Shown piece by piece: positions 1,621 through 16,824 of a stretch of DNA of 33,502 bases (positions are counted from its first letter, which is position 1; each line of letters opens with the position of its first letter). A model generated the notes under the pieces. That model was not told the origin of the DNA, did not search any database, and saw only the letters and a program-made list of their open reading frames with translations. Source of the DNA: an uncultured Bacillales bacterium (lineage in GTDB: Bacteria; Bacillota_I; Bacilli_A; RF39; UBA660). A program made the position numbers and the translations under genes. The stretch lies in assembly GCA_947303225.1 (NCBI GenBank), contig CAMYXG010000002.1, positions 1 to 33,502 of the forward strand, read 5' to 3'.

Positions 1621-2289
1621 CTACTCCTTTTCTACCTTAGGAACTATTCCCATTACCGTTAGTCCTAATTTATTTTCTATTTCTTCACTTGTTTTAATTG
1701 TTGTATCAAAATAGAAATTTATAAAGATAATTCCACATGATAAAACTAATCCTATTGCTATATAGATAACATTGTCTTTTATATAATTCACATTATATGG
1801 TTTTACTGCATCTACTGCTTTATCCACAATTGAAACGTTATTTAATTTATAGATTTTTTGAATTTCATCTGAGAAAACTGTTGCAATCTCATTTGCTATT
1901 TTTGTAGCAAGAGCTGCATCTGGATCTCCTACTGCGATTCTGATAATTTCTGTATTCGTTACTGCAGATACTGTAATATTTCTAGATAATTCCCCAACAC
2001 CATAATTAAGATTTAAGTTTTTAATTACTTGCTCTAGTACTTTTCTTGATTTAATAATTTCTGAATAAGTACTTACTAAGTTTTTATTCATTTGTAGTTC
2101 TGTTGAATTATATGATTCTGTTTGATTTTCACTTACTAATACAATTGTTGTATTACTTTGATACATTGGTACTCTTGTTAAGATGGTATATATATTACCA
2201 ATTCCTATTAAAAGTATCACAATTGCGATAATCCAAACTATTTTACTCTTAAAATAATCAAATAATTCTTTTAAATCAATTTCTTCCAT
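1621..2289 (-). CDS. cpsC: Wzz/CpsC-type chain-length determinant, transmembrane modulator of the BY-kinase
   Basis: Has an N-terminal TM (VWIIAIVILLIGIG), a periplasm-like middle region and a C-terminal TM (IYIAIGLVLSCGIIF). It sits immediately upstream of the kinase. Confidence 0.8.
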   Translation of the reverse strand: MEEIDLKELFDYFKSKIVWIIAIVILLIGIGNIYTILTRVPMYQSNTTIVLVSENQTESYNSTELQMNKNLVSTYSEIIKSRKVLEQVIKNLNLNYGVGELSRNITVSAVTNTEIIRIAVGDPDAALATKIANEIATVFSDEIQKIYKLNNVSIVDKAVDAVKPYNVNYIKDNVIYIAIGLVLSCGIIFINFYFDTTIKTSEEIENKLGLTVMGIVPKVEKE

Positions 2290-2319
2290 AAAACAATCCC
2301 TCTCTTTTCAAACGAATTC

Positions 2320-2348
2320 ATTATAGCACTAATTATCTTATAAATCAA
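2320..2348 (-). promoter_or_regulatory. sigma-A-type promoter of the cpsC-D-B-like operon
   Basis: On the minus strand: TTGATT (2343-2348), a 17-nt spacer, then TATAAT (2320-2325), about 30 nt upstream of the 2289 start. Confidence 0.5.
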
Positions 2349-2412
2349 GGAAATCTTTTATTTCTTATTATGTTTTATACTATATTATATGAATAAAAAA
2401 ATCCTAAATCAT

Positions 2413-2439
2413 AAAAAGCAAGCAGATTTCTCTGCTTGC
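2413..2439 (-). terminator. intrinsic terminator after the 2446..3144 gene
   Basis: GC-containing stem GCAAGCAG/CTGCTTGC (2418-2425 / 2432-2439) with a 6-nt loop, followed by a T-run on the minus strand. Confidence 0.7.
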
Positions 2440-2445
2440 TTCTTT

Positions 2446-3144
2446 TTACATTTTAAATTGTGTATAGTCTTTATTTTGATTTTCTTCTTCTAGCATTTTT
2501 GCTAAGTCTGATTGATCTCTATTATTCATATCATTTGGTTGATATTCTTTATTTTGAGTATTTTCTATGAAATCTTGTGAAATGTCATGATTTTCTTTTA
2601 TATTATTATCTTGTCTTTCTACTAGTTCTTTCATTTGATCGTATAAATCTTTGTCTGGATCATCTGCTTTATTGAAATCCTTTGATGAAATTTTCATAAT
2701 TTCTACAATTACTTCTACATCTGGATACATTGATTCATATAGTGCTACTAAAGCTGCTACATCAGCATCAGTGACTTCATACATTCCTAATTCTGGATTA
2801 AGTGGATATTCATTTGAAAAGTCAGGATACGTAGTATCTGAAGATATATATCCTTCTGGAATTTCTCCTGCTGGTTTATCTCTTAAAATTGATGGTGAAA
2901 CTGATATTATTTGTCCATCTGGATATTTATAAGTATAGCTTGGCTCTAATCCTTTCATGGATGTTAAAGCTGGTGCATCAATATATTTTTTACCATTTTC
3001 ATCCTCATAAATTCTTAATACCATTGTTCTTTTATTTTTTGGTTTTTCTATTACTTGTGGTGCATGCTGGGGTTGTGGCTCATAAGCAAAGTCTCCAAAT
3101 CCATTTCCTTGTGGTGGAGCGATTATTGTTTGTTCTCCGTTCAT
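2446..3144 (-). CDS. hypothetical acidic, Pro/Gln-rich soluble protein
   Basis: Long ORF. The start is moved to ATG 3144 (MNGEQ...) because the GGAGG RBS lies inside the track's first 6 codons. The gene has its own terminator. No recognisable motif. Confidence 0.6.
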   Translation of the reverse strand: MNGEQTIIAPPQGNGFGDFAYEPQPQHAPQVIEKPKNKRTMVLRIYEDENGKKYIDAPALTSMKGLEPSYTYKYPDGQIISVSPSILRDKPAGEIPEGYISSDTTYPDFSNEYPLNPELGMYEVTDADVAALVALYESMYPDVEVIVEIMKISSKDFNKADDPDKDLYDQMKELVERQDNNIKENHDISQDFIENTQNKEYQPNDMNNRDQSDLAKMLEEENQNKDYTQFKM

Positions 3145-3218
3145 ATTATTACCTCCTATCATTATTCTAGCATATATATCTTTATTTATAAAGAAAAACG
3201 TTGTTTATTTTACAGTGT

Positions 3219-4877
3219 TTACACTTTCTTATTTTGATACATTTCAATTCTTTTTAAGATTCTATCTTTTCCTAGTATTTTCATAATACTAAATAGATCT
3301 GGTGACTTTAATCTTCCTGTAATCATTACTCTAATTGCTTCACAAATATCTCCAACATGTCCTTTATAATCATCTGGATTTTTCTTATAATCTTTTGGAC
3401 TAGCAGCATAACCATTGTTACTTGCAAATTCTTTTATACCATTAAACCATGTTTCATTATCCGTATCTAAATCTAAATGATTTTCTATATAATCTTTTAT
3501 TAGATTAATATCATATGTTTTTTCACTTTCATTTTTCTTATAATTTTCTTTTTTAAATAAAGAATCAATGGCATATGAAAATTCTTCTTTTACTTCACTA
3601 TATTTTGAAATGTCTTTTCTAGGTCTAGTTCCATCTTTTTCAATATTTAAAAATTGAATCATATCTTCTTTATTAGCTAGTAATATTTCAGCATATTCTT
3701 TGTCATGCTTTAATGCCCAAGCAAGTGTTTCTTCATAAACTTCTTCCCCACTTTTACGAGAAAAATATGTTTTACATAAATTTATTAACTTAGCTTCATC
3801 AAAAGATGTTCCTCCGATTGCTTGTTTATCAAATGAAAATTCAAAATCTGATATATTTTTATCTGGATTTTGTAAATACCATTCTTCAAAATTCGTATTC
3901 GTAATAGTTGCTAGATATAGATGTAAGGCTTCTATTGGAATACCATTTTCATCATAATATTTTACTCCAAACCATGGATCTTTTCTTTTACTAATTTTTC
4001 TAATATTTCCTGTTTCTTGGTCTTTTATTGTGATAGGTGCAATATGTGCATATTTAACAGGAGTAAATTCTAATATCTGAAATAATTGTATATGTAGAGG
4101 TAGGCTTGATACCCATTCATCTCCACGTATTACGTGTGTTGTATGCATTAAATGATCATCTATTGCATGGGCAAAATGATATGTTGGTGTTCCATCTTTT
4201 TTTAATAACACTGTATCGATATCGTGTTCTGGAAATTTCATTTTTCCTTTGATACAATCTACTACTTCTATTTCTTTTTTAGCATCTCCTGGAGATTTTA
4301 GTCTAATAACATATTCATCTTTATTCTTTAGGTGTTCTTTTACTTCATCTAAACTTAAATCTCTATCAACTGCATAGTGACCATATATTCCTATTTTTAC
4401 TTTATTAATGGCTTGTTCTTCTTTTATATCATTTTGTTCTTCTTCAGTCATAAAACATGGATAAGCATAACCTTTAACAATTAAATCTTTGATATAAGCT
4501 TGATATATTTCTGTTCTTTCACTTTGTTGATATGGACCATATTCTCCTCCAAAAGAGTATCCTTCATTTGGTAATATTTGAAAATCATGTAAAACACTAA
4601 CAATATTTTCTATACCACCATCAATCATTCTCTTTTGATCAGTATCTTCTATTCGTAAAAAGAAACTCCCTTTAGTTTGTTTTGCATACATCATATCTGC
4701 AAATGCACTAAGTAAATTACCTAAATGTACAAATCCTGTTGGACTAGGTCCATATCTCGTTACCATTGCTCCATCAGGAAGATTTCTTTCTGGATATTTT
4801 TTTTCATAGTACTCTCTTGTTTTATCAATATTTGGAAATAACAATTCTGCTAGTTCTATTCTTTCTTCTTTTGTCAT
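3219..4877 (-). CDS. gltX: glutamate--tRNA ligase
   Basis: Class I HIGH region PSPTGFVHLGNL, the GluRS signature LRIEDTDQKR, and a KMSKS-like KISKRK. Confidence 0.9.
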   Translation of the reverse strand: MTKEERIELAELLFPNIDKTREYYEKKYPERNLPDGAMVTRYGPSPTGFVHLGNLLSAFADMMYAKQTKGSFFLRIEDTDQKRMIDGGIENIVSVLHDFQILPNEGYSFGGEYGPYQQSERTEIYQAYIKDLIVKGYAYPCFMTEEEQNDIKEEQAINKVKIGIYGHYAVDRDLSLDEVKEHLKNKDEYVIRLKSPGDAKKEIEVVDCIKGKMKFPEHDIDTVLLKKDGTPTYHFAHAIDDHLMHTTHVIRGDEWVSSLPLHIQLFQILEFTPVKYAHIAPITIKDQETGNIRKISKRKDPWFGVKYYDENGIPIEALHLYLATITNTNFEEWYLQNPDKNISDFEFSFDKQAIGGTSFDEAKLINLCKTYFSRKSGEEVYEETLAWALKHDKEYAEILLANKEDMIQFLNIEKDGTRPRKDISKYSEVKEEFSYAIDSLFKKENYKKNESEKTYDINLIKDYIENHLDLDTDNETWFNGIKEFASNNGYAASPKDYKKNPDDYKGHVGDICEAIRVMITGRLKSPDLFSIMKILGKDRILKRIEMYQNKKV

Positions 4878-4942
4878 AATACCACCTCTTTTTTAAACTA
4901 TTAATATCATACACTATTATCAAAAAAAAAGAAAGAATCTCT

Positions 4943-5173
4943 TTATTTTGATTTTCTTCCTTCATTTATATTTTGATCACTACGATATTCCATTTCTTGC
5001 ATAATAGCATCTAAAATACCTATTTTTTCATCTTTAATATCATCTACTTCAATATTCGTTCTTGCGGAAGATAATTCTTCGTCTGATAATGTTGTTAAAT
5101 ACTCTGTTAAAGCATGATGACGATAAAAGAATATTAGTGCCTCCTGTGATGTCATTTTATTTTCCTCTTTCAT
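4943..5173 (-). CDS. small hypothetical protein (76 aa)
   Basis: Internal ATG at 5173 with a GAGAGGAAG RBS. The longer track ORF (to 5293) runs through the tRNA gene and is rejected. Confidence 0.45.
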   Translation of the reverse strand: MKEENKMTSQEALIFFYRHHALTEYLTTLSDEELSSARTNIEVDDIKDEKIGILDAIMQEMEYRSDQNINEGRKSK

Positions 5174-5211
5174 ATTTCTTCCTCTCTTTCTACTTTTACT
5201 AAATAAAAAAA

Positions 5212-5286
5212 TGGCTGCCCCAGTTAGATTCGAACTAACGCGTGATGGAGTCAGAGTCCACTGCCTTACCGCTTGGCTATGGGGCA
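5212..5286 (-). tRNA. tRNA-Gln (anticodon CUG)
   Basis: Hand-folded cloverleaf: acceptor TGCCCCA/TGGGGCA, with the U1-A72 pair typical of bacterial tRNA-Gln. D arm GCC..GGC, anticodon stem GTGGA/TCCAT, loop CTCTGAC, T arm GTTAG-TTCGAAT-CTAAC, and an encoded CCA. Confidence 0.85.
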
Positions 5287-5336
5287 ATACCACTTTTATT
5301 TTATAATACTTTTTTTAAAAAAGAAAGTATTTTTTA

Positions 5337-5789
5337 TTATTTTGTGTTTTGATATACTATTTCATTCTCATTTTCTACTACTTTACCTGGTGTACTATAT
5401 TCATATTGACGTGTTATTTCATTATAAGTTGCTTCTGCAGTTACAGTTTCTGTATTAGTAAACCAAACATCAAATCCTTTTGTTACGGATCCTCTTCCCT
5501 TTGTATCTATATAGTTTTCTATTTCTAAGATTTCATATCCTTCAGGTATTTCTACTTGTCCATTCGTAATACTTGAAGTATTCATGTAGGAATCTGATAA
5601 TTCATACCTTCTATAAAATACATGTTCATATGGTTCGAATTCTTGATCAGAAGGTTTTTCAATTTGTTCCTGTTTTTCTTTTGCCTCTAAACAGTCTACT
5701 GCTGTTCTATAAATTGGACTTGCTATAGAAACAACTAAAGTTGCTGCTAAAGCAGTTGTTAGCATTCTATATACTTTTTCTTCTCTCAT
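5337..5789 (-). CDS. hypothetical N-terminally membrane-anchored or secreted protein
   Basis: GGAGAG RBS and a hydrophobic N-terminus (LTTALAATLVVSIASPI). It is the last gene of a tightly spaced four-gene operon. Confidence 0.6.
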   Translation of the reverse strand: MREEKVYRMLTTALAATLVVSIASPIYRTAVDCLEAKEKQEQIEKPSDQEFEPYEHVFYRRYELSDSYMNTSSITNGQVEIPEGYEILEIENYIDTKGRGSVTKGFDVWFTNTETVTAEATYNEITRQYEYSTPGKVVENENEIVYQNTK

Positions 5790-5798
5790 AGTTCTCTC

Positions 5799-6557
5799 CT
5801 ATTTTTTTCTTTTCATTAATATTTTTTTTTCAGAATTTTTTGGAAATAATTGATCAAATTCAGGCTCTATTCTTTTTCTTAATTCTTCTTCTCTTGCTAA
5901 TTTTTCTTGTTCAATTCGAGCTAATTCTTGTAAATATTCTTCTTCTCTTCTTTTTCTATCTATCTCTTGATTTTGTTTTGTAGCAGCGATATAATGTTGA
6001 TTCATTTTTCTCTCATTTTTCTTTTGATAGAACATGATGATTTTCTTTTTAGCTTCTTCTTTCATTGCTTCTACTGTTTGAATTACTTCCTCTTTTCTTG
6101 GCATTGTTTCTTCTATAATCTTTTGTTTCATTTCTGGAGTTAATTCTTGCATTACTACTCCATCATGATAATAACTATAAGAACCAATTGCTAATGGTTG
6201 ATGTAGAAGTGATGATTCTTGTTTTAATGCTTCTACTTCATAACTTTGTGTAACAGTATCTAAAATATCTTCATCTATTGTTTGTCTTCCATATACTTCT
6301 CCTGTTATTAAGTCTAAGTATTGTCCATTACCAAGATATTCTACAACTGTCCATAATTCTGAGATTGGATCAGCTGATAATTCATAATAATTACAAATCA
6401 TAGTTGCACAAGTATATGGATGTTCTTCTTTTGTAGAAATTGATGTTGATAACCTCTTATATGGCATTGCAAATCTTTTTCCTATTCTTTTTTCTTCTGT
6501 TTGATCTATTTTTACTTCTTTCTTTTTTTCTTTTCTAAATAATTTTTCTAATAACAT
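5799..6557 (-). CDS. hypothetical protein, uncharacterised family (paralog of 19968..21065) with a C-terminal Arg/Glu-rich helix
   Basis: Start set at ATG 6557 (AAAGGAAG RBS); the track start at 6575 is a TTG. Shares the blocks RFAMPY, LWTVVEYLGNGQ, TVTQS and LTPE..PRK with 19968..21065. Confidence 0.65.
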   Translation of the reverse strand: MLLEKLFRKEKKKEVKIDQTEEKRIGKRFAMPYKRLSTSISTKEEHPYTCATMICNYYELSADPISELWTVVEYLGNGQYLDLITGEVYGRQTIDEDILDTVTQSYEVEALKQESSLLHQPLAIGSYSYYHDGVVMQELTPEMKQKIIEETMPRKEEVIQTVEAMKEEAKKKIIMFYQKKNERKMNQHYIAATKQNQEIDRKRREEEYLQELARIEQEKLAREEELRKRIEPEFDQLFPKNSEKKILMKRKK

Positions 6558-6580
6558 ATTTTCTCTTCCTTTCAATCTTA

Positions 6581-7426
6581 TTATTTTTTTACTTTTATAT
6601 AATTATCTGGTTGAAAAAATCCTTTTTGATCAACTTCATATTCATTATTGATTGCTTCTATAATGATTTCTAATTGTTCTTTAAAATATTTAATTCTTTT
6701 TTGAAAATCTTCATCTGTTTCTGTTTTTCCAAAATCGTCATAATATTTATCAATTGCTGTATGTACTAAATCAAATATTCTTGATGTTGAATTGTCAAAT
6801 GTTAATCTATTTTCGTATGAATCATTTTTGTAGATTGCATATCCATCTCTGTCTTTTTTGCCTAAATAAATCCACTCATCTTCGTCATAGATTTTAACAT
6901 TACTTGTATCTCCTTCATATTCTGTTGCAGATAAAACGATTGTTTTTGATAATTCCATATTAAAGTCTATTAAATCTGTTTGACCATATTGAATTACATA
7001 GTTTCCTATTTTTTGATATATTTCATTTAACTGTAAATATAATTTTTCTTGTTCCTCTAATGATAAAGATTCTGTATCTTCAATACTTGATAAAAATTGT
7101 AATACTTCATCTAAATCGATATCATTAATAGATTCTCTTGTTACATCCTCTCTTTTTTCATATTTAATGTCTAATCCTAAGTCATCAATTTTTTCTATGA
7201 TTTGTATCATTTTTTCTAAGTTAATAATCTTTTTTTGTAATTCTTCTGGATTAGCTACTTTTTCCATAAATAAGTCATCTATTGTACTTGCAGGATTTTC
7301 AATCATAGATTGTTCTACAGAAGTTGATTGTTCCTTTTTTAGTGTAAAACCACATCCATTTAATAATGTAATTGCTCCTGATAAGTATAATACAATGCTT
7401 AATAGTTTTAAATTTTTTAATTTCAT
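6581..7426 (-). CDS. putative lipoprotein
   Basis: Signal peptide ending in the lipobox-like LLNGC (MKLKNLKLLSIVLYLSGAITLLNGC). GGGGGG RBS. The mature part is acidic. Confidence 0.65.
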   Translation of the reverse strand: MKLKNLKLLSIVLYLSGAITLLNGCGFTLKKEQSTSVEQSMIENPASTIDDLFMEKVANPEELQKKIINLEKMIQIIEKIDDLGLDIKYEKREDVTRESINDIDLDEVLQFLSSIEDTESLSLEEQEKLYLQLNEIYQKIGNYVIQYGQTDLIDFNMELSKTIVLSATEYEGDTSNVKIYDEDEWIYLGKKDRDGYAIYKNDSYENRLTFDNSTSRIFDLVHTAIDKYYDDFGKTETDEDFQKRIKYFKEQLEIIIEAINNEYEVDQKGFFQPDNYIKVKK

Positions 7427-7443
7427 ATTTATCCCCCCTATTA

Positions 7444-7803
7444 TTATTTTATTTTTTTAACTTTTTCTACTGGTATATTTGTCTTTTGTAATTCCATGGC
7501 CCAAGTAATTAATGAGTCAATAGAACTTTTTAATCTTAATACTAGATTCCTACTTCTTTCTAAATCTAATAATTCAAACCAATTATCATATAATTGTTTT
7601 TTTACTTCATTGTTGAAGAAGGATGGATCTGTATAGATTTTATTTGTTAGTTCTTTGATTTCACTAATTAATTTAATATATTTTGGTATACTTTCCATAG
7701 GACATGATGATAATAATGAATCACTTAAGTTCATTAATAAGAATTGTAATTTCATGTGTTCTTCATCATTATAGATATAATAAATTCTTTCTTCTTCTGT
7801 CAT
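7444..7803 (-). CDS. hypothetical helical cytoplasmic protein (119 aa)
   Basis: Start set at ATG 7803, 7 nt after GGAGG. The track start (TTG 7851) lies inside the upstream terminator stem. Confidence 0.6.
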   Translation of the reverse strand: MTEEERIYYIYNDEEHMKLQFLLMNLSDSLLSSCPMESIPKYIKLISEIKELTNKIYTDPSFFNNEVKKQLYDNWFELLDLERSRNLVLRLKSSIDSLITWAMELQKTNIPVEKVKKIK

Positions 7804-7958
7804 ATTCATTCCTCCTTTCTTTTTCATGAAGTTTTGCATATAAAAAAGCAAGACCTCATGAATGATTCATGAAAGTCTTGCCCAAATACAATGTATTTTT
7901 ATGATACAGGATAACCGAGATGATGTATCATAACTTTTAAGGACTACTCCCTTTCAAT
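7804..7958 (-). promoter_or_regulatory. candidate cis-regulatory leader (riboswitch/attenuator) or small RNA of unknown class
   Basis: The transcript predicted from the consensus promoter contains an 8-bp hairpin AUGAUACA/UGUAUCAU (7924-7931 / 7901-7908). It also has two AUACAUUG boxes and ends in a strong terminator before the RBS of 7444..7803. Confidence 0.45.
7842..7881 (-). terminator. intrinsic terminator (ends the HD-gene operon and/or acts as a leader attenuator)
   Basis: Stem GCAAGAC/GTCTTGC (7848-7854 / 7875-7881) plus an inner TCATGA/TCATGA stem and a 5-nt loop, followed by TTTTTT on the minus strand. Confidence 0.8.
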
Positions 7959-7964
7959 GTATAC

Positions 7965-7993
7965 ATTATACCACATTTTACACTTTTTGTCAA
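7965..7993 (-). promoter_or_regulatory. consensus sigma-A promoter
   Basis: On the minus strand: TTGACA (7988-7993), an exact 17-nt spacer ending in TGG, then TATAAT (7965-7970). It starts 24 nt after the stop of 8018..11632. Confidence 0.7.
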
Positions 7994-8017: not shown

Positions 8018-11000
8018 TTATAGTCTATTTTGTCCAGATGAAACCTGGTCTTCATCAGCATTTGTATTTTGTTCTGACTTGTTTGGATGTAACGGATGTT
8101 CTTTTGCAAAATCTATTCTTAATTCTGCCATGTCTTCTCCTGTTAAGACATTATTTTTATCCTTTCTATTGATTACATAAGCCATAAATCCCTTGCAATA
8201 GTCTATATAGTCTTCCAATATAGCTGCTATTAAAGGATCTTTACTTTTATATTGATTTAGTATTTTATCTAGCATTTCATATTCTAATAAGAAATTCATT
8301 GTTTGTTTACTTCGCATATTTACTAGAATAAATTGATTTAGTTGCCAGATTAACGTCGTAATATAATGACCTGCTATGTGCATATTCTCACTTTCTAGTT
8401 GCATTCTATCTTCAACTGAAAATAATCTCATATATTCTTCAACTTCTGTTGTTTTTTGGGTTTGTATTTCTTCTTGTTTAGGTGGATATATCCAAACTCT
8501 ATTTGGATTAATTGATCCTAGCTGAAATTTTCTATCAAGCCATTCCGTTGCAATGAGTTTTTTTGTTATTCTTATTTTCTCTTCTTCTTCTTTACTTGCT
8601 ATATTGGAATCGAATATATTACGATCAACACTTATGACAAAAAACTTACCTAGTTCTTTTGGAACTTTTAAATATCGATTTTCATTATATTGGTTTAATA
8701 GTTTTAGATTGGTTTTTAAATCTTTTAATTCTAAATAAATTTGTTCTTTTTCTTTGTCACTTATATCTTCTTTTAATAAATCTTTCTCTAAATCATTTAT
8801 TCGGCTTTCCCAATTCTCTATTAATTTTTCTACAAGGAATTCATTCCAATCTTTGTTCTTGAATAGTTTATATGGCTGTTCTGTAGTTATTGATCGTTTT
8901 CCTTCTTCTGCATGGTTTATAATAACATTGTTTTCTGAAATCGTTATTTCTTTTATCTCTTTTTTGATTTTGTGCTGTTTCTTATCAAAGATACATGCTA
9001 ATTCGCTACAATCTGAGACAAGGTAGTTTTCTATTGCTATTCTTGCTGCTTTATGCAAACTATTTATCACTTTAATGATATTAGAATCTAACACAATTGG
9101 ATCTTTAATATCAAAGCAAAAATATTCGTTTAATAACTCCACAAAGCTTTTACCAGGAGTTGCTATAATATCAAAAGATGGTTCTTTATAAGGGGATGTT
9201 GGATAAATTCCTAAACATCTTTGATTTAAAATATCTACTTTATCAGCATCTGTTGTAATTAATAATGGATATGTCATGAAGAAATGAATCATTTCCATAT
9301 TCTCTGTTTTACCTAGAATACTATTCTTATCGTCAGTAGAGTCACCACTAGTAGAGCTTTGTGCATCAGGGAAACTTTGAGCAGCAGTAGGTCTTGAGGA
9401 ATGATATGCTTTGAAGTCTGCTTGCATAGCTCTTGCAATATCAAAATCTTGTAGGTTATGCAACATCTGTTTTATTTCTTCAGAAGATACTTCTTCTATT
9501 TGTTTCAATTTATCCTGAGTTATTTTACCTCTGAGATTCTTACTTAGATCTCTTATTATTTTCATAATTCTTTCTACTGCATCATTTTCTCTTTCATCTA
9601 TATTTAAAGGTGTTTCTTCATTTGGATGATTTGTACCTTCTATAACATCTTTTCTAAATTCCCTAACTATTGTTTCAATTCTTTCTTGAGCTTCTTCTAG
9701 CTTTTTTGTTATTTCGCTCTTAGATTTGTCTAACAAGAATCCTTCATCATCTACTAAAGTAATATCTATTTTTTTAGATAAAGAATCTTTTATTCTTTCT
9801 CGTAGTTTTTTTTCTTGCTCATCTGAAATCATTAACGAAATCTCTAATGGTTCTGTTTCTGTTAAATCATTATGTTCTTGAATTACATTGGCTTGGGAGT
9901 ATTGTAGGTTCTCTTTGATTCCATTATTCATCTCGTCATCCATTTCGTCATCCATGTCATCATCCATGTCGTCACCTATGATTCTAGAGATGAATTGTTT
10001 CATGAATTGTAGTTCTTCTTGACGTATCTCTCTCTCTGTTTCATATGCCATAGCTCTTGAAGAAGAGTATAATGCATTAATATACTTATAAACATATTGT
10101 AACTCTTCTGTAAAATCATTACCAGAGCCCATAATATCTGTTATACTAAATATAGAATCAAATTCAGGCATATCTTTGTTTGAGATTTGATGAAAACGTA
10201 CAACAAGTGCTACTATAGCATTCAATACAAACTCTTTGCGTGCTTCTTCAGTTTCTAATTCTTGACTTTGGAATACTAGGGAACTTGCCAAAGCAAAATA
10301 GTATCCTGCACAAGCATGATCGAAACTACCTTCTTCTTCGATATCTCTTGCTATTTTTTCTTCGTCAGACATGATTGCATCTTTAAATGTATTAAAATGG
10401 GCAGCTTGATAGAATCTTCCAACATCATGAAGAAGTGCTGAAGTTAATGTAATCGTCTTTAATAGTTGAGCTCTTTCAGACGAAGAATCTTGTTTGCTGG
10501 CTTCCATCATATGATCAAAATCATATTGTGCTATATAAACGACTCGTGCAGAATGGCCAAATTTAATTTGCATGTTATATAGTCTCATTATTTGAGCTAG
10601 AAACCATTGATCTTCAATTGAATTTGGTTGGTTATTTTCATAACGATTGATGATATTAATTAATCTTTCTATAATATTTATTTTATCTCCTTCTAAATCT
10701 ACACCCATCATATTGAAAAATGGGATATATATATTTTGAAAAAGATTACTTAAGAAATCACTTGTTTCTATTTTCGGAAAAATTTCTAGTTCTATTGCTT
10801 CTCTTCTTAGTCTTTCTATTCCTAACCTTAAAATTTTTTGCTGCTCTTTTGCTTTTGCTATTTCACTTGTTCGATATTCTTCAGATATCATATCATTTGA
10901 TATTAGGTCATTTATTCTCTTCTCGACTTCTGCCAATCTTTTTTTTGCTTCTTCAATTATTTTGAAAGTATATTCAAATGATGATTGTGTTAGTTTATCT

Positions 11001-11632
11001 AATAACTTTTGTAATTTCTCTTTCTTTTCGCTTGAATCTACTTCTTCTATTTTTTTTGTTATACTTTGAATAGCTTTTTCTTTTTTTTCTTGTAATTTTT
11101 TCCATAGTTCAGCTATGTTCTTTTTTGCTTCTGTTAGTTGCTCTATCGCTTCTTCCATCTCACTTGCTCGATATTCTTCTGATATCATATCATTTGATTG
11201 CAATTCATTTATTTTGTTTGTTGCTTCTGTTATTTTGTCTTGTTCTTCTTCTATTTTTTTGAAAATACATTCTCCTATAATATTTCCATTTATTTGCTTT
11301 ATGACTTCTTTTATTTCTGCTTCATCCACTTCCTGTGTTTTTTGTTTAAAGAATGGAGAATATTGTTGTTGTTCTTTTGGTGTTTTACCTTCTGATTCTT
11401 TAATACTTTGTTCTGCTATTTCTTTCAATTCTTTCTTACATGATTCATAGTATTCTTCTAGTATACTCCATGCATACCCAATACTTTCATCACTTTCACC
11501 AATTGCTTGTAGCCATTCTATTGCTGCTGCTTCATCTGCTCCCATTATTCTTATTGCTTCTTGGTCAATTTTAGCAGAACTACTTGATGATAATTGTTCC
11601 ATAATCTTATTGTTCATATCATCATTTGTCAT
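8018..11632 (-). CDS. 1204-aa coiled-coil protein with an HD (HDIG-like) metal-dependent phosphohydrolase domain
   Basis: Motifs are GHSARV (H360), ALLHDVGRF (H402-D403), DHACAG (H439), RFHQ (H481) and DADKVD (aa 795-800). There is an N-terminal repeat of about 99 aa and an acidic DDM repeat. GGAGGTG RBS, and an ATGA overlap with the upstream gene. Confidence 0.7.
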   Translation of the reverse strand: MTNDDMNNKIMEQLSSSSSAKIDQEAIRIMGADEAAAIEWLQAIGESDESIGYAWSILEEYYESCKKELKEIAEQSIKESEGKTPKEQQQYSPFFKQKTQEVDEAEIKEVIKQINGNIIGECIFKKIEEEQDKITEATNKINELQSNDMISEEYRASEMEEAIEQLTEAKKNIAELWKKLQEKKEKAIQSITKKIEEVDSSEKKEKLQKLLDKLTQSSFEYTFKIIEEAKKRLAEVEKRINDLISNDMISEEYRTSEIAKAKEQQKILRLGIERLRREAIELEIFPKIETSDFLSNLFQNIYIPFFNMMGVDLEGDKINIIERLINIINRYENNQPNSIEDQWFLAQIMRLYNMQIKFGHSARVVYIAQYDFDHMMEASKQDSSSERAQLLKTITLTSALLHDVGRFYQAAHFNTFKDAIMSDEEKIARDIEEEGSFDHACAGYYFALASSLVFQSQELETEEARKEFVLNAIVALVVRFHQISNKDMPEFDSIFSITDIMGSGNDFTEELQYVYKYINALYSSSRAMAYETEREIRQEELQFMKQFISRIIGDDMDDDMDDEMDDEMNNGIKENLQYSQANVIQEHNDLTETEPLEISLMISDEQEKKLRERIKDSLSKKIDITLVDDEGFLLDKSKSEITKKLEEAQERIETIVREFRKDVIEGTNHPNEETPLNIDERENDAVERIMKIIRDLSKNLRGKITQDKLKQIEEVSSEEIKQMLHNLQDFDIARAMQADFKAYHSSRPTAAQSFPDAQSSTSGDSTDDKNSILGKTENMEMIHFFMTYPLLITTDADKVDILNQRCLGIYPTSPYKEPSFDIIATPGKSFVELLNEYFCFDIKDPIVLDSNIIKVINSLHKAARIAIENYLVSDCSELACIFDKKQHKIKKEIKEITISENNVIINHAEEGKRSITTEQPYKLFKNKDWNEFLVEKLIENWESRINDLEKDLLKEDISDKEKEQIYLELKDLKTNLKLLNQYNENRYLKVPKELGKFFVISVDRNIFDSNIASKEEEEKIRITKKLIATEWLDRKFQLGSINPNRVWIYPPKQEEIQTQKTTEVEEYMRLFSVEDRMQLESENMHIAGHYITTLIWQLNQFILVNMRSKQTMNFLLEYEMLDKILNQYKSKDPLIAAILEDYIDYCKGFMAYVINRKDKNNVLTGEDMAELRIDFAKEHPLHPNKSEQNTNADEDQVSSGQNRL
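9929..9976 (-). repeat. four tandem 12-nt units encoding the acidic DDMDDDMDDEMDDEM tract
   Basis: catctcgtcatc / catttcgtcatc / catgtcatcatc / catgtcgtcacc are read directly from the plus strand. The units are in frame within 8018..11632. Confidence 0.9.
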
Positions 11633-12108
11633 GCATTATACACCTCCTTTTCAAGATTTTCATATAATTTTGTTGCTTCTTCATAAAACATTTCTAAAAA
11701 TTTTATCTTGTTCATTAATACTCCATTTCTATAATTATCTTCCTGAGCAAATGCTTTTGGAAGTGTCATTCTTGCTTTTTTTAAACTTTCTAGGAAGTCA
11801 GTATTCCTTTCTAAATTACGATATACTTTTATAGCATCTGATGATGAAAAAGTAGTTTCTTGATTTTTAGAAAGTTCTTCTATCATTAAAAACAATCCTG
11901 ATTTATGAATAATATCTATCCATCTTTTTAAAGCAAAAAATTGTTCTTCATATTCTTCTTTTGATTGAATATCTTGAATCCAAGAAAATAAATTTATTTT
12001 TATTTTTTTTATGTTTTCATATTGTATATCATCCGTTAGGACATATTTTGTCATTGCATATATAGCATCTTCTCCTATTTGATGCTTCCATTCAAGTAGA
12101 TTATTCAT
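11629..12108 (-). CDS. hypothetical helical protein (159 aa)
   Basis: AGGAGG RBS. Its stop overlaps the start of the HD-protein gene (ATGA). No recognisable motif. Confidence 0.65.
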   Translation of the reverse strand: MNNLLEWKHQIGEDAIYAMTKYVLTDDIQYENIKKIKINLFSWIQDIQSKEEYEEQFFALKRWIDIIHKSGLFLMIEELSKNQETTFSSSDAIKVYRNLERNTDFLESLKKARMTLPKAFAQEDNYRNGVLMNKIKFLEMFYEEATKLYENLEKEVYNA

Positions 12109-12131
12109 TACTTTATCCTCCTATTTCTTTT

Positions 12132-13091
12132 TTATTTTAATTCTACTTTATTTTCTTCTGCATGCTCAACCATCTCTTCTGCATGAAATGTTATTCCCAT
12201 TAAGTTTCTTCCTTCTCTATCTGTTGGAACTCCGTCTACTCTAGAATGATAACTTCTGGCATTTGAAAAATAATTTTCATCAAACAAGGTATTATTTGGA
12301 TCAAAATAGATGTGATCTGTTGAGACTCCGCTTGCTATTATTTGATCATAAACTTTGTCTCCATAGTGAATGATAAACTTTCCATCGATTTCTTCTATAT
12401 ATCCTTGCCATTCTTCACGAATTCCAATAATATTTCCTTCTTCATCTTTTAATGCTGCGAATGGTGGCATTGTATCATAAGTCCATCCATCCATAGCAAA
12501 GGCGCCTACATATACTTCAATGTCTTCTATATTGGAACCGAAATGTTCTTGCATGTATTGAATAGATGATCCAATTAAGTCTTCTGTTGTTCGAGAAGCA
12601 TCTGAATGAGTTAGACCAATTACTTCTCTTTTTGGATCATAGAATCTTACTACAGCACAATCTGCTGCTGGAAATACTAGGGAAACACTTCTTCCAAATT
12701 CTTTTAAAATTCTATCATGAGTTTCTTTTGTCATAAAAATGGTATTGTATCTTTTATCGATATTCCAAATAGTTCCTTGTTTTCGATAGATTTCACTGTT
12801 GTAATATTCTACGAATTCTTCATATGTTATTTCATGGCATTCTTCTATTAATTTATCTTTTGCTGGTTGATCTGGCATGGCTAAATCATCTAATCCTACA
12901 CTGCTTGCATTTCCCATCAAATATCTGATACGGATCATAGCTTCTTTCATTTCTTCTGGAAAGAATCTTGGTGCTGTATTCCAACTGTAAATATGTGTTC
13001 CTGTTGTTCTCTTGGTTAAGGTAAATGGTACAGCTGTATGTGTTCTTAAATATTCTAAATTAACTTCTAATTCATTTATTGGATTTTTCAT
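12132..13091 (-). CDS. divergent YfiH/PgeF/LACC1-like (DUF152, Cu-oxidase_4 fold) protein
   Basis: A by-eye alignment to E. coli YfiH matches three regions. ETHD aligns with QVHG. FPAADCAVV aligns with MTADCLPV. IGLTHSDASR aligns with AAVHAGWRG. The C-terminal FSNARS...EGRNLMGITF aligns with FSYRRD..TGRMASFIW. The His/Cys/His positions are retained. Confidence 0.55.
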   Translation of the reverse strand: MKNPINELEVNLEYLRTHTAVPFTLTKRTTGTHIYSWNTAPRFFPEEMKEAMIRIRYLMGNASSVGLDDLAMPDQPAKDKLIEECHEITYEEFVEYYNSEIYRKQGTIWNIDKRYNTIFMTKETHDRILKEFGRSVSLVFPAADCAVVRFYDPKREVIGLTHSDASRTTEDLIGSSIQYMQEHFGSNIEDIEVYVGAFAMDGWTYDTMPPFAALKDEEGNIIGIREEWQGYIEEIDGKFIIHYGDKVYDQIIASGVSTDHIYFDPNNTLFDENYFSNARSYHSRVDGVPTDREGRNLMGITFHAEEMVEHAEENKVELK

Positions 13092-13103: not shown

Positions 13104-13478
13104 CTAATATAATTTTGATCCTGCTGGAATTGTATCGTCTACTATCATTAGATTTAATCTTTCTTCTCCATCAACATTATGAACTGCAGACATAAGCATT
13201 CCACACGAATCGATTCCCATCATATTTCTTGGTGGTAAATTCAGAATGGCAATAACTTTCTTTCCTACTAATTCTTCTGGTTCATAGTAGGAATGGATTC
13301 CACTTAAAATAATTCTTTCTTCTTCTGTTCCATCATCTAATACGAATTTTAATAGTTTTTTGCTTTTAGGAACTGCTTCACATTCCTTAATATGAACTAC
13401 TCTAAAGTCTGATTTAGAAAAGGTATCAAAATCTACATATTCTTTTGTTAATGGTTCTAATTCAATCATTTCTTCCAT
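13104..13478 (-). CDS. stand-alone tRNA-binding (OB-fold, CsaA/Trbp111/EMAP-like) domain protein
   Basis: FSKSDFRVVHIKECEAVPKSKKLLKFVLDDG...ILSGI...LVGKKVIAILNLPPRNMMGIDSCGMLMSA is the classic tRNA-binding-domain pattern. Start set at ATG 13478, after AGGAGA. Confidence 0.75.
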   Translation of the reverse strand: MEEMIELEPLTKEYVDFDTFSKSDFRVVHIKECEAVPKSKKLLKFVLDDGTEEERIILSGIHSYYEPEELVGKKVIAILNLPPRNMMGIDSCGMLMSAVHNVDGEERLNLMIVDDTIPAGSKLY

Positions 13479-13488
13479 TTTGATTCTC

Positions 13489-14412
13489 CTATTCATTATT
13501 TTCATTTAATTCTTCTATTGATTTTTTTAATATACTAATAGAATTTTTTAGTTTTTCTGTTTCATTTTCTGTTAAATTAAAATGTATCTTTTTCTCTGCT
13601 CCGTTTTTATTGATAATACTTGGTAAGCCAATATAAATATCATTTGTTGGATCATAAGTAGAAACTACCATAACAGTATTCTCATCCCCTAAAATAGCAT
13701 TGGTAATCCTAACTAAACACATTCCAATTCCATAATAGGTTGCTCCTTTTGCTTTAATGATTTTATATGCAGCATCTTTTACTTCATCTTGAATTTCTTC
13801 TTGATCTTCTTTTGTTATAAAATCTGTAATAGGTTGAAGTGCTACATTGACATTACTCCATGGAATGAATTCAGAATCTCCATGTTCTCCTATGACATAA
13901 CCATGTACATTGGATGGAGATACTCCTATTTTGCTTGCTACTAAGTATTTTAATCTTGCTGTATCTAGTGTTGTTCCACTTCCTATTACTCTTTCTTTTG
14001 GTAAATTAGAATATTGTTGTGTTAAATAAGTCATGATATCGACTGGATTGGTAGCAATTAAGAAGACTCCATCGAATCCATTTGACATTACTTCTGTAAT
14101 GATACTTTTAAAAATGGAAGCATTTTTCTTTAATAAGTCTAGTCTTGTTTCTCCTTCTTTTTGATTTACTCCTGCTGCTAGAACAATTAAAGAGGCATCC
14201 CTGCAGTCTGAATATTCTCCTACTTTTATTTTCATTTTAGATGGAGAAAATGCTAGACAATGATTTAGGTCCATTACTTCTCCTTCTACTCGTTCTTTAT
14301 TTAAATCGATTAAAGCTAATTCGTTGACATAAGTTCTTTGATTTAATAAAGCATAAGCATAACTCATGCCAACATTTCCACATCCTATGATGACTACTTT
14401 TTTATTTTTCAT
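13489..14412 (-). CDS. ldh: L-lactate dehydrogenase
   Basis: Rossmann motif KVVIIGCGNVG, plus NPVD, GSGTTLDTAR and the catalytic IGEHGDSE. Start set at ATG 14412 (GGAG RBS); the track start is a TTG. Confidence 0.9.
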   Translation of the reverse strand: MKNKKVVIIGCGNVGMSYAYALLNQRTYVNELALIDLNKERVEGEVMDLNHCLAFSPSKMKIKVGEYSDCRDASLIVLAAGVNQKEGETRLDLLKKNASIFKSIITEVMSNGFDGVFLIATNPVDIMTYLTQQYSNLPKERVIGSGTTLDTARLKYLVASKIGVSPSNVHGYVIGEHGDSEFIPWSNVNVALQPITDFITKEDQEEIQDEVKDAAYKIIKAKGATYYGIGMCLVRITNAILGDENTVMVVSTYDPTNDIYIGLPSIINKNGAEKKIHFNLTENETEKLKNSISILKKSIEELNENNE

Positions 14413-14423
14413 ATTATCTCCTT

Positions 14424-15611
14424 TTACATTAAATTCTTTATTGCCCAATTATAGACAGATTTTGAAACGGTTCCTCTAGTATCTCCATCTACATGAAAAT
14501 TAAATCCTAATAGTGCGATATAATATCTTTTTCCTTTATGATTAAATCCCCATATTCCATGCTTATAAGCTTGAGTTCCACTTTTAATATAGAATAAACC
14601 ATTATTATTTCTTCCTCCAATTCCGGAAGCGAAGTACTCATCTTTCATAGCAACTGTTGTTACTAGTACTAAATCACTTGCTGTTATTCCAAATGTTCCC
14701 TTTGAAATACCATTTCCATCAAATTCTCCCCATCTATTGGCTCCATAGTTATAGTTTACTCCACTAGAACTAACTAGCTTTGTTCTTTTACAACCTACTT
14801 CCATTAAATATTCATTGATTTTATCCATTCCTTTATTATAAGCATCTGCATCTGATGATGTATTATAATATTTTTTTCCGATAGCAATCGCTATATTAGC
14901 CGTTGTTATGTTTGATGAACCTGGGAAATCTTTTGTAGCTGCCTGGGAAACTGTTAATCTTTGGCCTACTTTTACGTCTGGGTCTCCCATATATGGCATA
15001 TTTTGAGCATACTGTGTACTGATAATAATATCTTGAGTTGGATCTAGTAGTTTTACCGCAGCTAGTCCTGTAAATACTTTCGTGGTAGATCCTCCTTCTC
15101 TTAATAAGTCCGGATCTTTTTCTGCTAAAATATTTCCATTATCATCTGCTATTACGACACTTAAATTACTATGGGGAGCTCCTGCTAATACTGATGATGG
15201 AATGCTTTTAGCATTTGTATTGTTCATACTAACTCCAGAGCCACCTTTTTCATAATCGGAAGCATTTCCATAAATTTTTTGTTTTTCTTTTCCACTAATA
15301 TCAATATAATCTGTTCCTATTGATATTTGTCCTGAAACGTTATTCCAACAATAACTTATATTATTAGTTTCTCCTAATAATAGCATAATTGCATTTACAA
15401 TAACTGGAACAAAGAATACAATTGCTGCAGCTAAGAATTGATTAATTATTTTTTTGATACCATTTTTTTCTTCTGGATTTTTGACTAATTTTATAAATGA
15501 AATTGTTCCAAATACTATTAATAATATTGGTACAAATATTTGTATCAATGTCATAATATTTTTTACAATAGTTAGTATTGCACTCAATGTTGTATCATCA
15601 CAATTATTCAT
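14424..15611 (-). CDS. membrane protein: two-TM N-terminal module fused to a penicillin-binding/beta-lactamase-fold (DD-peptidase-like) domain
   Basis: Carries SxxK (GGSTTK), SxN (GSSNIT) and K[ST]G (IKSGT) motifs, with spacing similar to class A/S11 enzymes. Two N-terminal TM helices are flanked by conserved Cys residues. It is a paralog of the next gene. Confidence 0.6.
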   Translation of the reverse strand: MNNCDDTTLSAILTIVKNIMTLIQIFVPILLIVFGTISFIKLVKNPEEKNGIKKIINQFLAAAIVFFVPVIVNAIMLLLGETNNISYCWNNVSGQISIGTDYIDISGKEKQKIYGNASDYEKGGSGVSMNNTNAKSIPSSVLAGAPHSNLSVVIADDNGNILAEKDPDLLREGGSTTKVFTGLAAVKLLDPTQDIIISTQYAQNMPYMGDPDVKVGQRLTVSQAATKDFPGSSNITTANIAIAIGKKYYNTSSDADAYNKGMDKINEYLMEVGCKRTKLVSSSGVNYNYGANRWGEFDGNGISKGTFGITASDLVLVTTVAMKDEYFASGIGGRNNNGLFYIKSGTQAYKHGIWGFNHKGKRYYIALLGFNFHVDGDTRGTVSKSVYNWAIKNLM

Positions 15612-15627: not shown

Positions 15628-16824
15628 TTATTTTATTAAATTAGTAATGGCCCAATTATGTAAATCATTTACTACTTTATATTTATCATCTCCAGCATCG
15701 CAATTGATTCCTAATTGTGAGATATAATATCTTTTCCCTTTATAATTAAATCCCCATATTCCGTGACATTGATATCCAGTACCACTTTTTACAAAGAATA
15801 ATCCTTCATTATTTCTTCCTCTAATTCCAGATGAAAAATATTCTTCTTTCATTGCTTCTATGGTTACTATTGCTAGGTCATTTGCTGTATGTCCATCTTC
15901 ACATCCATCTCTTGGTAATCCATTTGGAAAAAATCTCATATGACCTTTTGGATAAAAATCTAGGCCACTAGTATTTCCTAAATGAGTATCAGCAAGATTC
16001 ATATCGCTATAAAATTCATTTATTTTTTTCATTCCTTTATGAAAAGCATCTTCATCTGATGAACAATTATAATACTTTCTTCCTACTGCAACAGCGATAT
16101 CTGTTGCTGTTGTATTAGAAGATCCTGGAAAATTATAGGTAGCTGCTTTTGGAATAGAAAACTTATTTCCAACTCCAATAGGGGCTCCATTCCATTTTCC
16201 AACTGCATCTACTGCAAATTGTGTTCCTGTTATTACATCTGTTTCTGGGTCTAGTAGTTTAATAGCTGCATATCCTGCAAAGACTTTGGTGGTGGAACCT
16301 CCTTCTCTTCTAACTAGTGCTTTTCTTTCAGCAAGAACATAACCTTCTTCATCTGTTATCACGATACTTGGATCACTATGTGTGGCATTTTTTAATACAT
16401 CATTTGGTACTTCTACTGCATTACTATAGTTTAGATGTACTCCCCCTATTTCATAATCTTCTGCATTTGGTAGAATTTTGTTTTTTTCTTTACCATTAAT
16501 TTGTATATATTCTGCATTATTTGATATTCTGTCATTTGCATTTATCCAACACTTACTAATATCATTTCCATCTCCTAGCATCATCATAACTGTATTTACA
16601 ATAACTGGAATAAAGAATATGATTGCTGCTGCTAGAAACTGATTGATTATTTTTTTGATACCATTTTTTTCTTCTGGATTTTTGACTAGTTTTATAAGTG
16701 AAATTGTAGCAAATATCATTAATAGTATTGGTATAATGATTTGTATCAGTAACAAAATATTTTTTACGATGCTTAAAACTGATTGCAGAGAAGAATCGTT
16801 ACAAGTAGTTACTATTTCATTCAT
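15628..16824 (-). CDS. membrane protein: two-TM N-terminal module fused to a penicillin-binding/beta-lactamase-fold domain (tandem paralog)
   Basis: Has the same architecture (GGSTTK, GSSNTT, VKSGT). A 42-nt stretch (16647-16688) is identical to 15446-15487 in the neighbouring gene. Confidence 0.6.
   Translation of the reverse strand: MNEIVTTCNDSSLQSVLSIVKNILLLIQIIIPILLMIFATISLIKLVKNPEEKNGIKKIINQFLAAAIIFFIPVIVNTVMMMLGDGNDISKCWINANDRISNNAEYIQINGKEKNKILPNAEDYEIGGVHLNYSNAVEVPNDVLKNATHSDPSIVITDEEGYVLAERKALVRREGGSTTKVFAGYAAIKLLDPETDVITGTQFAVDAVGKWNGAPIGVGNKFSIPKAATYNFPGSSNTTATDIAVAVGRKYYNCSSDEDAFHKGMKKINEFYSDMNLADTHLGNTSGLDFYPKGHMRFFPNGLPRDGCEDGHTANDLAIVTIEAMKEEYFSSGIRGRNNEGLFFVKSGTGYQCHGIWGFNYKGKRYYISQLGINCDAGDDKYKVVNDLHNWAITNLIK

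Follow-up and report, generated by a model that had tools for sequence, protein, structure and literature searches.

In a 33,502-nucleotide stretch from an uncultured Bacillales bacterium (contig CAMYXG010000002.1 of assembly GCA_947303225.1), referred to below as the window, positions 8018 to 13091 hold three consecutive genes for a YfiH/LACC1-like enzyme, a 159-amino-acid protein and a 1204-amino-acid HD-domain protein, which an earlier note made from the letters alone had read as one translationally coupled module. We favour, at a probability of roughly 0.55, the reading that the region holds two unrelated things, a YfiH-type gene and an autonomous two-gene cassette at 8018-12108, and that this cassette encodes an HD metalloenzyme with a small partner. 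The earlier interpretation was partly supported: the YfiH identity, the HD motifs and the coupled pair stand, and the three-gene system does not.

To collect loci carrying the pair, we scanned one genome per species from 185,579 species with a pattern for the large protein, added metagenome contigs and fetched flanks of up to 10 kb, which yielded 14 distinct loci besides the window. The results showed that an open reading frame (ORF) of ~160-250 amino acids immediately precedes the large gene in all 14; in 10 loci it is homologous to the 159-amino-acid protein of the window (E<1e-16), in 2 weakly similar and in 2 matched by position only. At the small/large junction, 13 of the 14 loci have an overlap or a gap of at most 12 nucleotides: an ATGA overlap in L001, L005, L011, L013, L015 and L018, an overlap of 13-14 nucleotides in L002, L009 and L017, and a gap of 1-12 nucleotides in L010, L012, L014 and L016, with a gap of 87 nucleotides in L006. 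When the window is included, the ATGA overlap occurs in 7 of 15 loci and another overlap or a gap of at most 12 nucleotides in 7 more. These results demonstrate that the conserved unit is the translationally coupled pair of small and large genes. It corresponds to no named system, so that the earlier statement to this effect holds for the pair, with the YfiH-like gene excluded.

The YfiH-like gene does not belong to this unit. A tblastn search with its product gave no match in the flanks fetched for the other 14 pair loci, and none of 8 fetched contigs with a YfiH-like gene (6 distinct loci) contained a homologue of the small or the large protein; the loci without the pair include the closest YfiH-like relatives, at 67-70% identity. 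The YfiH-like family is also far commoner, with 89 clusters at 90% identity against 5 for the large-protein family in the same database. The proposed three-gene module therefore failed the synteny check (0 of 14 pair loci with YfiH, 0 of 6 YfiH loci with the pair), and because the three genes are not syntenic elsewhere, the idea of nucleoside or nucleotide processing together with YfiH loses its basis. A literature search for an operon combining HD and YfiH genes found no paper.

The earlier description of the gene layout was largely accurate and was partly confirmed. The three minus-strand ORFs lie exactly at 12132-13091, 11629-12108 and 8018-11632; the 23-nucleotide gap between the YfiH-like and small genes and the 4-nucleotide ATGA overlap between the small and large genes were both read in the sequence. 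The GGAGG-type ribosome-binding sites reported for each gene were likewise found as AGGAGG-type sites before all three starts, in gene order AGGAGGAG (YfiH-like), AGGAGGA (small) and AAGGAGGTG (large). This spacing cannot delimit a three-gene module, because the tight spacing runs on upstream to 16824. A tRNA-binding-domain gene (13104-13505) stops 12 nucleotides before the YfiH-like start, an LDH gene (13489-14448) overlaps it, two more genes precede with gaps of at most 16 nucleotides, and from 16824 down to 8018 the largest intergenic gap is 23 nucleotides. The window has ~28% G+C, and its minus strand carries almost every gene.

To identify the conserved residues of the large protein, we used a 31-sequence family alignment with window numbering. 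Invariant within residues ~335-500 are R350, N353, K357, H360, H402, D403, G405, R406, Y408 and Q409, and further H439, G443, Y444, H481 and N485. H402-D403 sit in LLHDVGR, as the earlier note had seen, and belong to the pattern H402-D403-x-G405-R406-x-Y408-Q409. The extended ligand pattern H360...H402-D403...H439...H481...D797 is present, and all six of its residues are invariant in the family; helical inserts part the last ligand helix, DADKVDILNQR, from the rest of the HD core. According to a review, the pattern H...HD...H...H...D diagnoses a dinuclear site, and in HD phosphohydrolases a basic residue stands three positions ahead of the first His (PMC8177086). K357 is the basic residue three positions before the first ligand His, H360.

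Membership of the large protein in the Pfam HD family (PF01966) appears to hold transitively, via relatives, rather than directly. A weak match to PF01966 at E<=0.05 was obtained for 21 of the 31 family members (best 4.2e-05), one member, from L016, scored 22.2 bits against the cut-off of 22, and shorter relatives of ~250 and ~370 amino acids passed the cut-off with 26-48 bits. Profile-profile comparison (hhalign) linked the ~370-amino-acid relatives to the C-terminus of the large family with a probability of 99.5%; hhalign showed this C-terminal match only, and the link through the HD region came from hmmsearch. The best solved-sequence match of the ~370-amino-acid relatives was 2o08 (YqeK, a dinuclear Ap4A hydrolase; E 0.006). 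In PADLOC-DB 2.0, the sole match of the three window proteins was a weak one of the large protein to Cas3 HD (residues 360-482, E 0.021, 13 bits), and relatives of the large protein gave weak NCBIfam matches to HDIG, Cas3'' and YqeK. Searches of PDB sequences with phmmer and with profiles of the large protein and its family returned coiled-coil noise only. Other identities, namely RNase Y, Rel/SpoT, dGTPase/SAMHD1 (deoxynucleoside triphosphate (dNTP) triphosphohydrolase) and HD-GYP, were considered and rejected, as there were no KH, RelA_SpoT, TGS, HD_assoc or GYP signals; for dGTPase/SAMHD1 there was also no Pfam, NCBIfam or PADLOC match in the window protein or its relatives.

The window copy carries ~377 extra charged residues, at 73-315, 575-677, 758-781, 938-991 and 1051-1077. 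The earlier note had placed the HD motifs inside a very large coiled-coil scaffold; the motifs are real, and the scaffold consists of these copy-specific insertions. They surround a compact core of ~720 amino acids, which AlphaFold modelled as a single globular, mostly helical fold. Within the N-terminal insertion, residues 121-165 and 221-265 (window 10838-11272) form a recent internal duplication (56% identical over 45 residues, BLASTP E 3e-13) with SNDMISEEYR at residues 146 and 245. The AlphaFold2 model of a compact homologue, P0002, built from the 31-sequence alignment, reached a predicted local distance difference test score (pLDDT) of 87.2 and a predicted template modelling score (pTM) of 0.83; helices make up most of it, next to a small region of beta structure. 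When the whole chain of this model was compared with the PDB by Foldseek, the best match had E 0.045 and no HD protein was among the top matches, which suggests that the overall architecture of the large protein has no solved counterpart.

The small partner protein matched no Pfam, NCBIfam, PADLOC or PHROG family, and a word-based homologue search with it returned only itself. We therefore found its homologues through their position upstream of the large gene and a local hidden Markov model; these relatives are annotated as hypothetical proteins. The AlphaFold2 model built from 11 sequences (pLDDT 90.2, pTM 0.83) is all-helical with nine helical elements, and Foldseek found no neighbour for it in the PDB (best E 1.3). 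No natural fusion of the small and large proteins was found among the representatives. With pLDDT values of 90.2 and 87.2, the models indicate that both the small and the large proteins are probably real, folded proteins.

To assess the distribution of the large protein, we searched several collections. Only 4 other clusters at 90% identity were found among 5.8 billion proteins, and a profile search of 1.84 billion representatives gave 79 matches at E<=1e-3, including 37 at E<=1e-30. Full-length loci numbered 11 among the 185,579 species genomes, and their hosts are all metagenome-assembled genomes (MAGs) labelled Bacilli, Bacillales, Erysipelotrichaceae or 'Tenericutes', plus one Clostridium. 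These results show that the large-protein family is rare and confined to uncultured gut and rumen Bacilli. No copy of the pair was found by tblastn in 50,697 phage records and 72,556 plasmid records, or in a scan of IMG/VR.

The neighbours of the pair differ by clade (HSP20-RluA ... NUDIX/ASCH, scpA-scpB, rplU-rpmA-obg, rpsB-tsf, addA-like helicase), and in 13 of the 14 loci they are ordinary housekeeping genes, none of them linked to defence or mobility; in L017 the pair is flanked by a large serine recombinase on one side and an Amidase_3+LysM gene on the other. L001, L005 and L011 share the order RluA-small-large-(NUDIX)-ASCH. In L040 (1-1133), where RluA shares 84% identity with its L001 counterpart, ASCH follows RluA after 8 nucleotides and the pair is missing, an 'empty site' relative to L001 1599-6004. 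In L015 (9956-11020), the large gene is truncated after the HD motif to 355 amino acids and fused in frame to a NUDIX-like C-terminus, while the small gene upstream is intact; the fusion looks like the product of a deletion joining two neighbouring genes. In L014, just downstream of scpA-scpB, the large homologue is split into 3747-5072 (442 amino acids) and 5076-6620 (515 amino acids). Because of the empty site, the truncated copy and the split copy, the pair looks accessory and dispensable, with a patchy distribution. In the clade with the RluA context, the pair occupies one locus in four species and diverges faster than its flanks (large protein 56-60% and small protein 39-50% identity, compared with 80-85% for RluA and 81-86% for HSP20). 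Four species with RluA proteins that share only 80-85% identity have kept the pair at one place, which points to long, mostly vertical inheritance of a fast-evolving pair. A NUDIX gene directly follows the pair in L001 and L005, and L015 carries it as a fusion; this adjacency is the only contextual hint of a nucleotide-type substrate class.

Taken together, the large protein is probably a dinuclear HD phosphohydrolase or phosphodiesterase that forms a two-subunit enzyme with the small protein. The coupled genes would yield the two proteins in fixed proportion, and these would form a complex in which the large subunit acts as a hydrolase on a phosphoester or phosphodiester bond in a substrate of nucleotide type; candidates are dinucleoside polyphosphates, oligonucleotides (cyclic or linear) and nucleic-acid ends. 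Its small partner would be obligate and would serve for regulation, inhibition or targeting, and the cassette as a whole would be dispensable rather than part of the core gene set.

Several points weigh against the reading of the cassette as a two-subunit HD metalloenzyme. The large protein of the window has no Pfam match (E<=0.1) and no NCBIfam match, so its assignment rests on motifs and relatives. Foldseek searches of the P0002 model against the PDB and BFVD gave nothing below E 0.04; with no structural neighbour, fold-level support for an HD protein is missing and the assignment is based on sequence. The same six-ligand HD motif also occurs in Cas3-type nucleases and diiron oxygenases (PMC8177086), so that no substrate can be inferred from it. 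The physical interaction of the two proteins is a prediction, the empty site in L040 does not prove that the pair is absent from that genome, and the NUDIX association is limited to one clade.

The main rival, which we consider unlikely, holds that the pair is an undescribed two-component conflict system, toxin-antitoxin-like or anti-phage, in which a giant dinuclear HD protein would act as a nuclease or nucleotide-degrading effector and would be restrained by a new-fold helical partner serving as antitoxin, inhibitor or sensor. The layout, with a small gene upstream overlapping a larger one, resembles that of toxin-antitoxin pairs. The patchy spread (11 full-length loci in 185,579 species genomes; 37 clusters at E<1e-30), the empty site in a close relative together with one truncated and one split copy, and a divergence faster than that of the flanking genes would also fit, as would the copy-specific insertions with their recent internal duplication, the serine recombinase and Amidase_3+LysM gene adjoining the pair in L017, and the weak Cas3-HD similarity. 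However, that Cas3 HD similarity is the only PADLOC match and there is no PHROG match; the phage, plasmid and IMG/VR collections hold no copy; the neighbours in 13 of the 14 loci are housekeeping genes (scpAB, rpsB-tsf, obg, rluA, addA-like) rather than defence or mobility genes; and the pair was kept at the same locus in four species through long vertical inheritance. The idea of a conflict system thus has no support from a family, an island or a mobile element beyond one locus, and the defence role that the earlier note had raised as a possibility gained no direct support from these searches.

The possibility that the large protein is not a hydrolase but an HD-domain oxygenase with a diiron site, of the MIOX/PhnZ/TmpB type, is very improbable. 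Such oxygenases share the H...HD...H...H...D ligand set (PMC8177086), and there are very weak TmpB matches (E 1.7 against PDB sequences and, for a distant relative, 0.0065 in NCBIfam), but the invariant basic residue three positions before the first His is a phosphohydrolase trait (PMC8177086). No phosphonate or inositol genes lie nearby, and the host MAGs belong to gut and rumen Bacilli, which are presumably anaerobic, so that O2-dependent chemistry would be unlikely in them. The reading of the YfiH-like enzyme, the 159-amino-acid protein and the HD protein as a single three-gene nucleoside/nucleotide-processing or signalling system could appeal to their co-directional order in the window with a 23-nucleotide gap, a 4-nucleotide overlap and a strong ribosome-binding site each, and to the nucleotide-acting members of both enzyme superfamilies (the LACC1/FAMIN branch of the YfiH superfamily acts on nucleosides), but it is refuted by the lack of synteny in both directions, including among the relatives of 67-70% identity, with the far commoner YfiH-like family (89 versus 5 clusters) and the tight spacing that extends over the tRNA-binding-domain gene, LDH and another two genes also against it.

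The features of the cassette and its surroundings are listed in Table 1.

Table 1. Features of the two-gene cassette and adjoining elements (window positions; residues refer to the protein encoded by the large gene)
Feature	Position	Strand	Details
YfiH-like neighbour, outside the cassette	12132..13091	-	319 aa, divergent YfiH/YlmD-type, PF02578
Small partner gene, first of the conserved pair	11629..12108	-	159 aa, all-helical in the model, no known family
ATGA stop/start overlap coupling the small and large genes	11629..11632	-	sequence (gca-tga / atg-aca)
Large HD-domain gene	8018..11632	-	1204 aa; ~720-aa conserved core plus copy-specific insertions
Copy-specific charged helical insertion	10688..11416	-	residues ~73-315; absent from all other family members
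HD core, N-terminal part	10133..10630	-	residues ~335-500; invariant columns in the 31-sequence alignment
Copy-specific central insertion	9593..9967	-	residues ~556-680; includes acidic run DDMDDDMDDEMDDEM
Last HD metal-ligand helix, DADKVDILNQR	9203..9265	-	residues ~790-810; D797, K798, I801, Q804 invariant
Conserved C-terminal helical domain	8108..8380	-	residues ~1085-1175; LIWQLNQFILVNMRSK; Q1100, N1105, R1107 invariant
Separate unit, not part of the cassette	7842..7993	-	promoter 7993-7965, structured ~115-nt RNA, hairpin plus U-run terminator 7881-7842

Downstream of the large gene, the earlier note had pointed to a hairpin with a T-run at 7842-7881 as the first terminator after the three genes. 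The hairpin is real, and because a promoter intervenes between it and the stop of the large gene, it ends a separate unit of ~115 nucleotides. This promoter is of sigma-70 type, TTGACA-17-TGnTATAAT, with 12 of 12 consensus positions and the TG extension. The ~115-nucleotide stretch is strongly structured (minimum free energy -35.1 kcal/mol, z = -4.15), with a perfect 10-base-pair hairpin followed by a long hairpin with the U-run, and Rfam gave no match for 7842-7993. The unit is a candidate small RNA or cis-regulatory leader, just upstream of a 135-amino-acid ORF at 7444-7851. Four consecutive minus-strand genes (135, 281, 258 and 150 amino acids) occupy 5337-7851 downstream of the cassette; they matched no Pfam, PADLOC or PHROG family and had no homologue in any fetched locus, and the 281-amino-acid product has a lipoprotein-like N-terminus.

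The YfiH-like protein was correctly recognised earlier as a divergent member of the YfiH fold: it passes Pfam PF02578 with 43.7 bits against a gathering cut-off of 22.9, over residues 135-280 only, and falls far below the PgeF equivalog cut-off (TIGR00726; 31.6 versus 141.15 bits). Its own family comprises 89 clusters at 90% identity, ~305-324 amino acids long and all from uncultured Bacilli, and the few members with a name go by 'laccase domain' or 'polyphenol oxidase family' protein. The conserved His/Cys/His positions claimed before hold in part. C145 (AADC) and H162 (THS), 17 residues apart, are invariant in 17 family members and line up with ADC and HAGW(R/K)G in the solved YfiH/YlmD structures 6dzd, 7fbg and 6t0y, which makes them the counterparts of the catalytic Cys107 and His124 of Escherichia coli, while H125 (ETHD) varies (N in P0034, F in P0037) and D126 of the same motif is Y or F in some members. 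The alignment to the solved structures also bore out the replacement of the HAGWRG loop by HSDASR, written more generally as HSD(A/I)..T. H86 is invariant, as is DQP where DQxH is expected, and the C-terminal FSN.RS and GRN motifs are kept. In Escherichia coli YfiH, the triad is His124-Asp89-Cys107, and W127 and R128, in the HAGWRG loop, contact the diphosphate of UDP (PMC8844914). Equivalents of His71 and Asp89 and the W127/R128 UDP contacts are not kept in the YfiH-like protein or its family. Because of the HSDASR loop and the variable H125 and D126, the protein belongs to a divergent subfamily that may not act on UDP-MurNAc-peptides.

Genomic contexts of the YfiH-like family vary between loci. 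In L036, the gene sits between ftsZ and sepF-divIVA, amid ftsZ, ftsK, M16 peptidases, sepF and divIVA, a neighbourhood that is also occupied by ylmD of Bacillus subtilis. Like YfiH/PgeF/YlmD proteins, the window protein has the Pfam match, the catalytic Cys and the following His, the FSN.RS and GRN motifs and, in L036, the ftsZ context; it differs in that the alignment is limited to residues 135-280, its N-terminal half is longer and divergent, the triad Asp equivalent varies in its family and the W127/R128 contacts are replaced. The gene at 12132-13091 is the lineage's version of the YfiH/YlmD laccase-domain enzyme, an independent gene and a chance upstream neighbour of the cassette.

Other genes were noted in the window. 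Tandem paralogues of 395 and 398 amino acids, 55% identical, lie at 14424-15611 and 15628-16824 on the minus strand; both have an N-terminal membrane segment resembling a type IV secretion system (T4SS) pilin, together with a domain of weak similarity to S11 D-Ala-D-Ala carboxypeptidases. A tRNA-Gln (CTG) gene (5212-5286, minus strand) lies just 5' of a gltX-like gene (3219-4877, minus strand), and a 116-amino-acid ORF (4943-5293) overlapping the tRNA gene is probably spurious.

These results remove a false lead, the YfiH-HD 'nucleotide system', and replace it with a defined two-gene cassette that is rare and strictly paired, encodes an enzyme placed in the HD superfamily by its metal-site motifs only, and yields two models without solved neighbours. 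HD enzymes govern nucleotide second messengers, dNTP pools and nucleic-acid cleavage, and a further, two-subunit branch could therefore bring to light a substrate, or a mechanism of regulation or defence, that is new. At present, the large protein represents an uncharacterised family within the known HD superfamily, not a demonstrated new system.

Compared with type II toxin-antitoxin and two-gene anti-phage systems, the cassette shares a small upstream gene coupled to a larger enzyme gene and a patchy, decaying distribution. It differs in that the pair has no similarity to a toxin, an antitoxin or a PADLOC family, the 'toxin' would have 720-1204 amino acids, and the pair stands mostly in housekeeping neighbourhoods with no phage or plasmid copies.

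The ~370-amino-acid HD proteins (P0138-P0160) share with the large protein the motifs K..H, LLHDIGRF.QA, NHA..GY, H, D.DK.DIL.QR and a C-terminal WW..FL..NF...Y. They are half its size or less, are without its N-terminal region and long inserts, carry a LysM-like segment and are themselves uncharacterised. Their contexts were uninformative, consisting of one short contig and one bPH_1-HD-LDH arrangement; in the latter, the single context seen for P0152, no small overlapping partner is present. In L045, the bPH_1-HD-LDH block is preceded, at 1974-4360, by a large serine recombinase and a gene with a NERD domain; both are absent from the similar contigs L046 and L047, and they are probably a mobile-element insertion. 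In P0150 (743 amino acids), a ~370-amino-acid HD relative carries a PBP4B/AmpH-like domain of beta-lactamase fold fused to its N-terminus; this fusion and the LysM-like segment may point to a link between that branch and the cell wall.

YqeK (2o08), PgpH and the Cas3'' HD domain show the same extended H...HD...H...H...D pattern as the large protein, for which no match reached a curated cut-off and Foldseek gave none. YqeK is a stand-alone protein of ~190 amino acids, whereas the large protein has 720-1204 amino acids; long helical inserts interrupt its HD core, after which come a small region with beta structure and the conserved domain at the C-terminus. In contrast to the YqeK type, the large gene is always paired with a small upstream gene.

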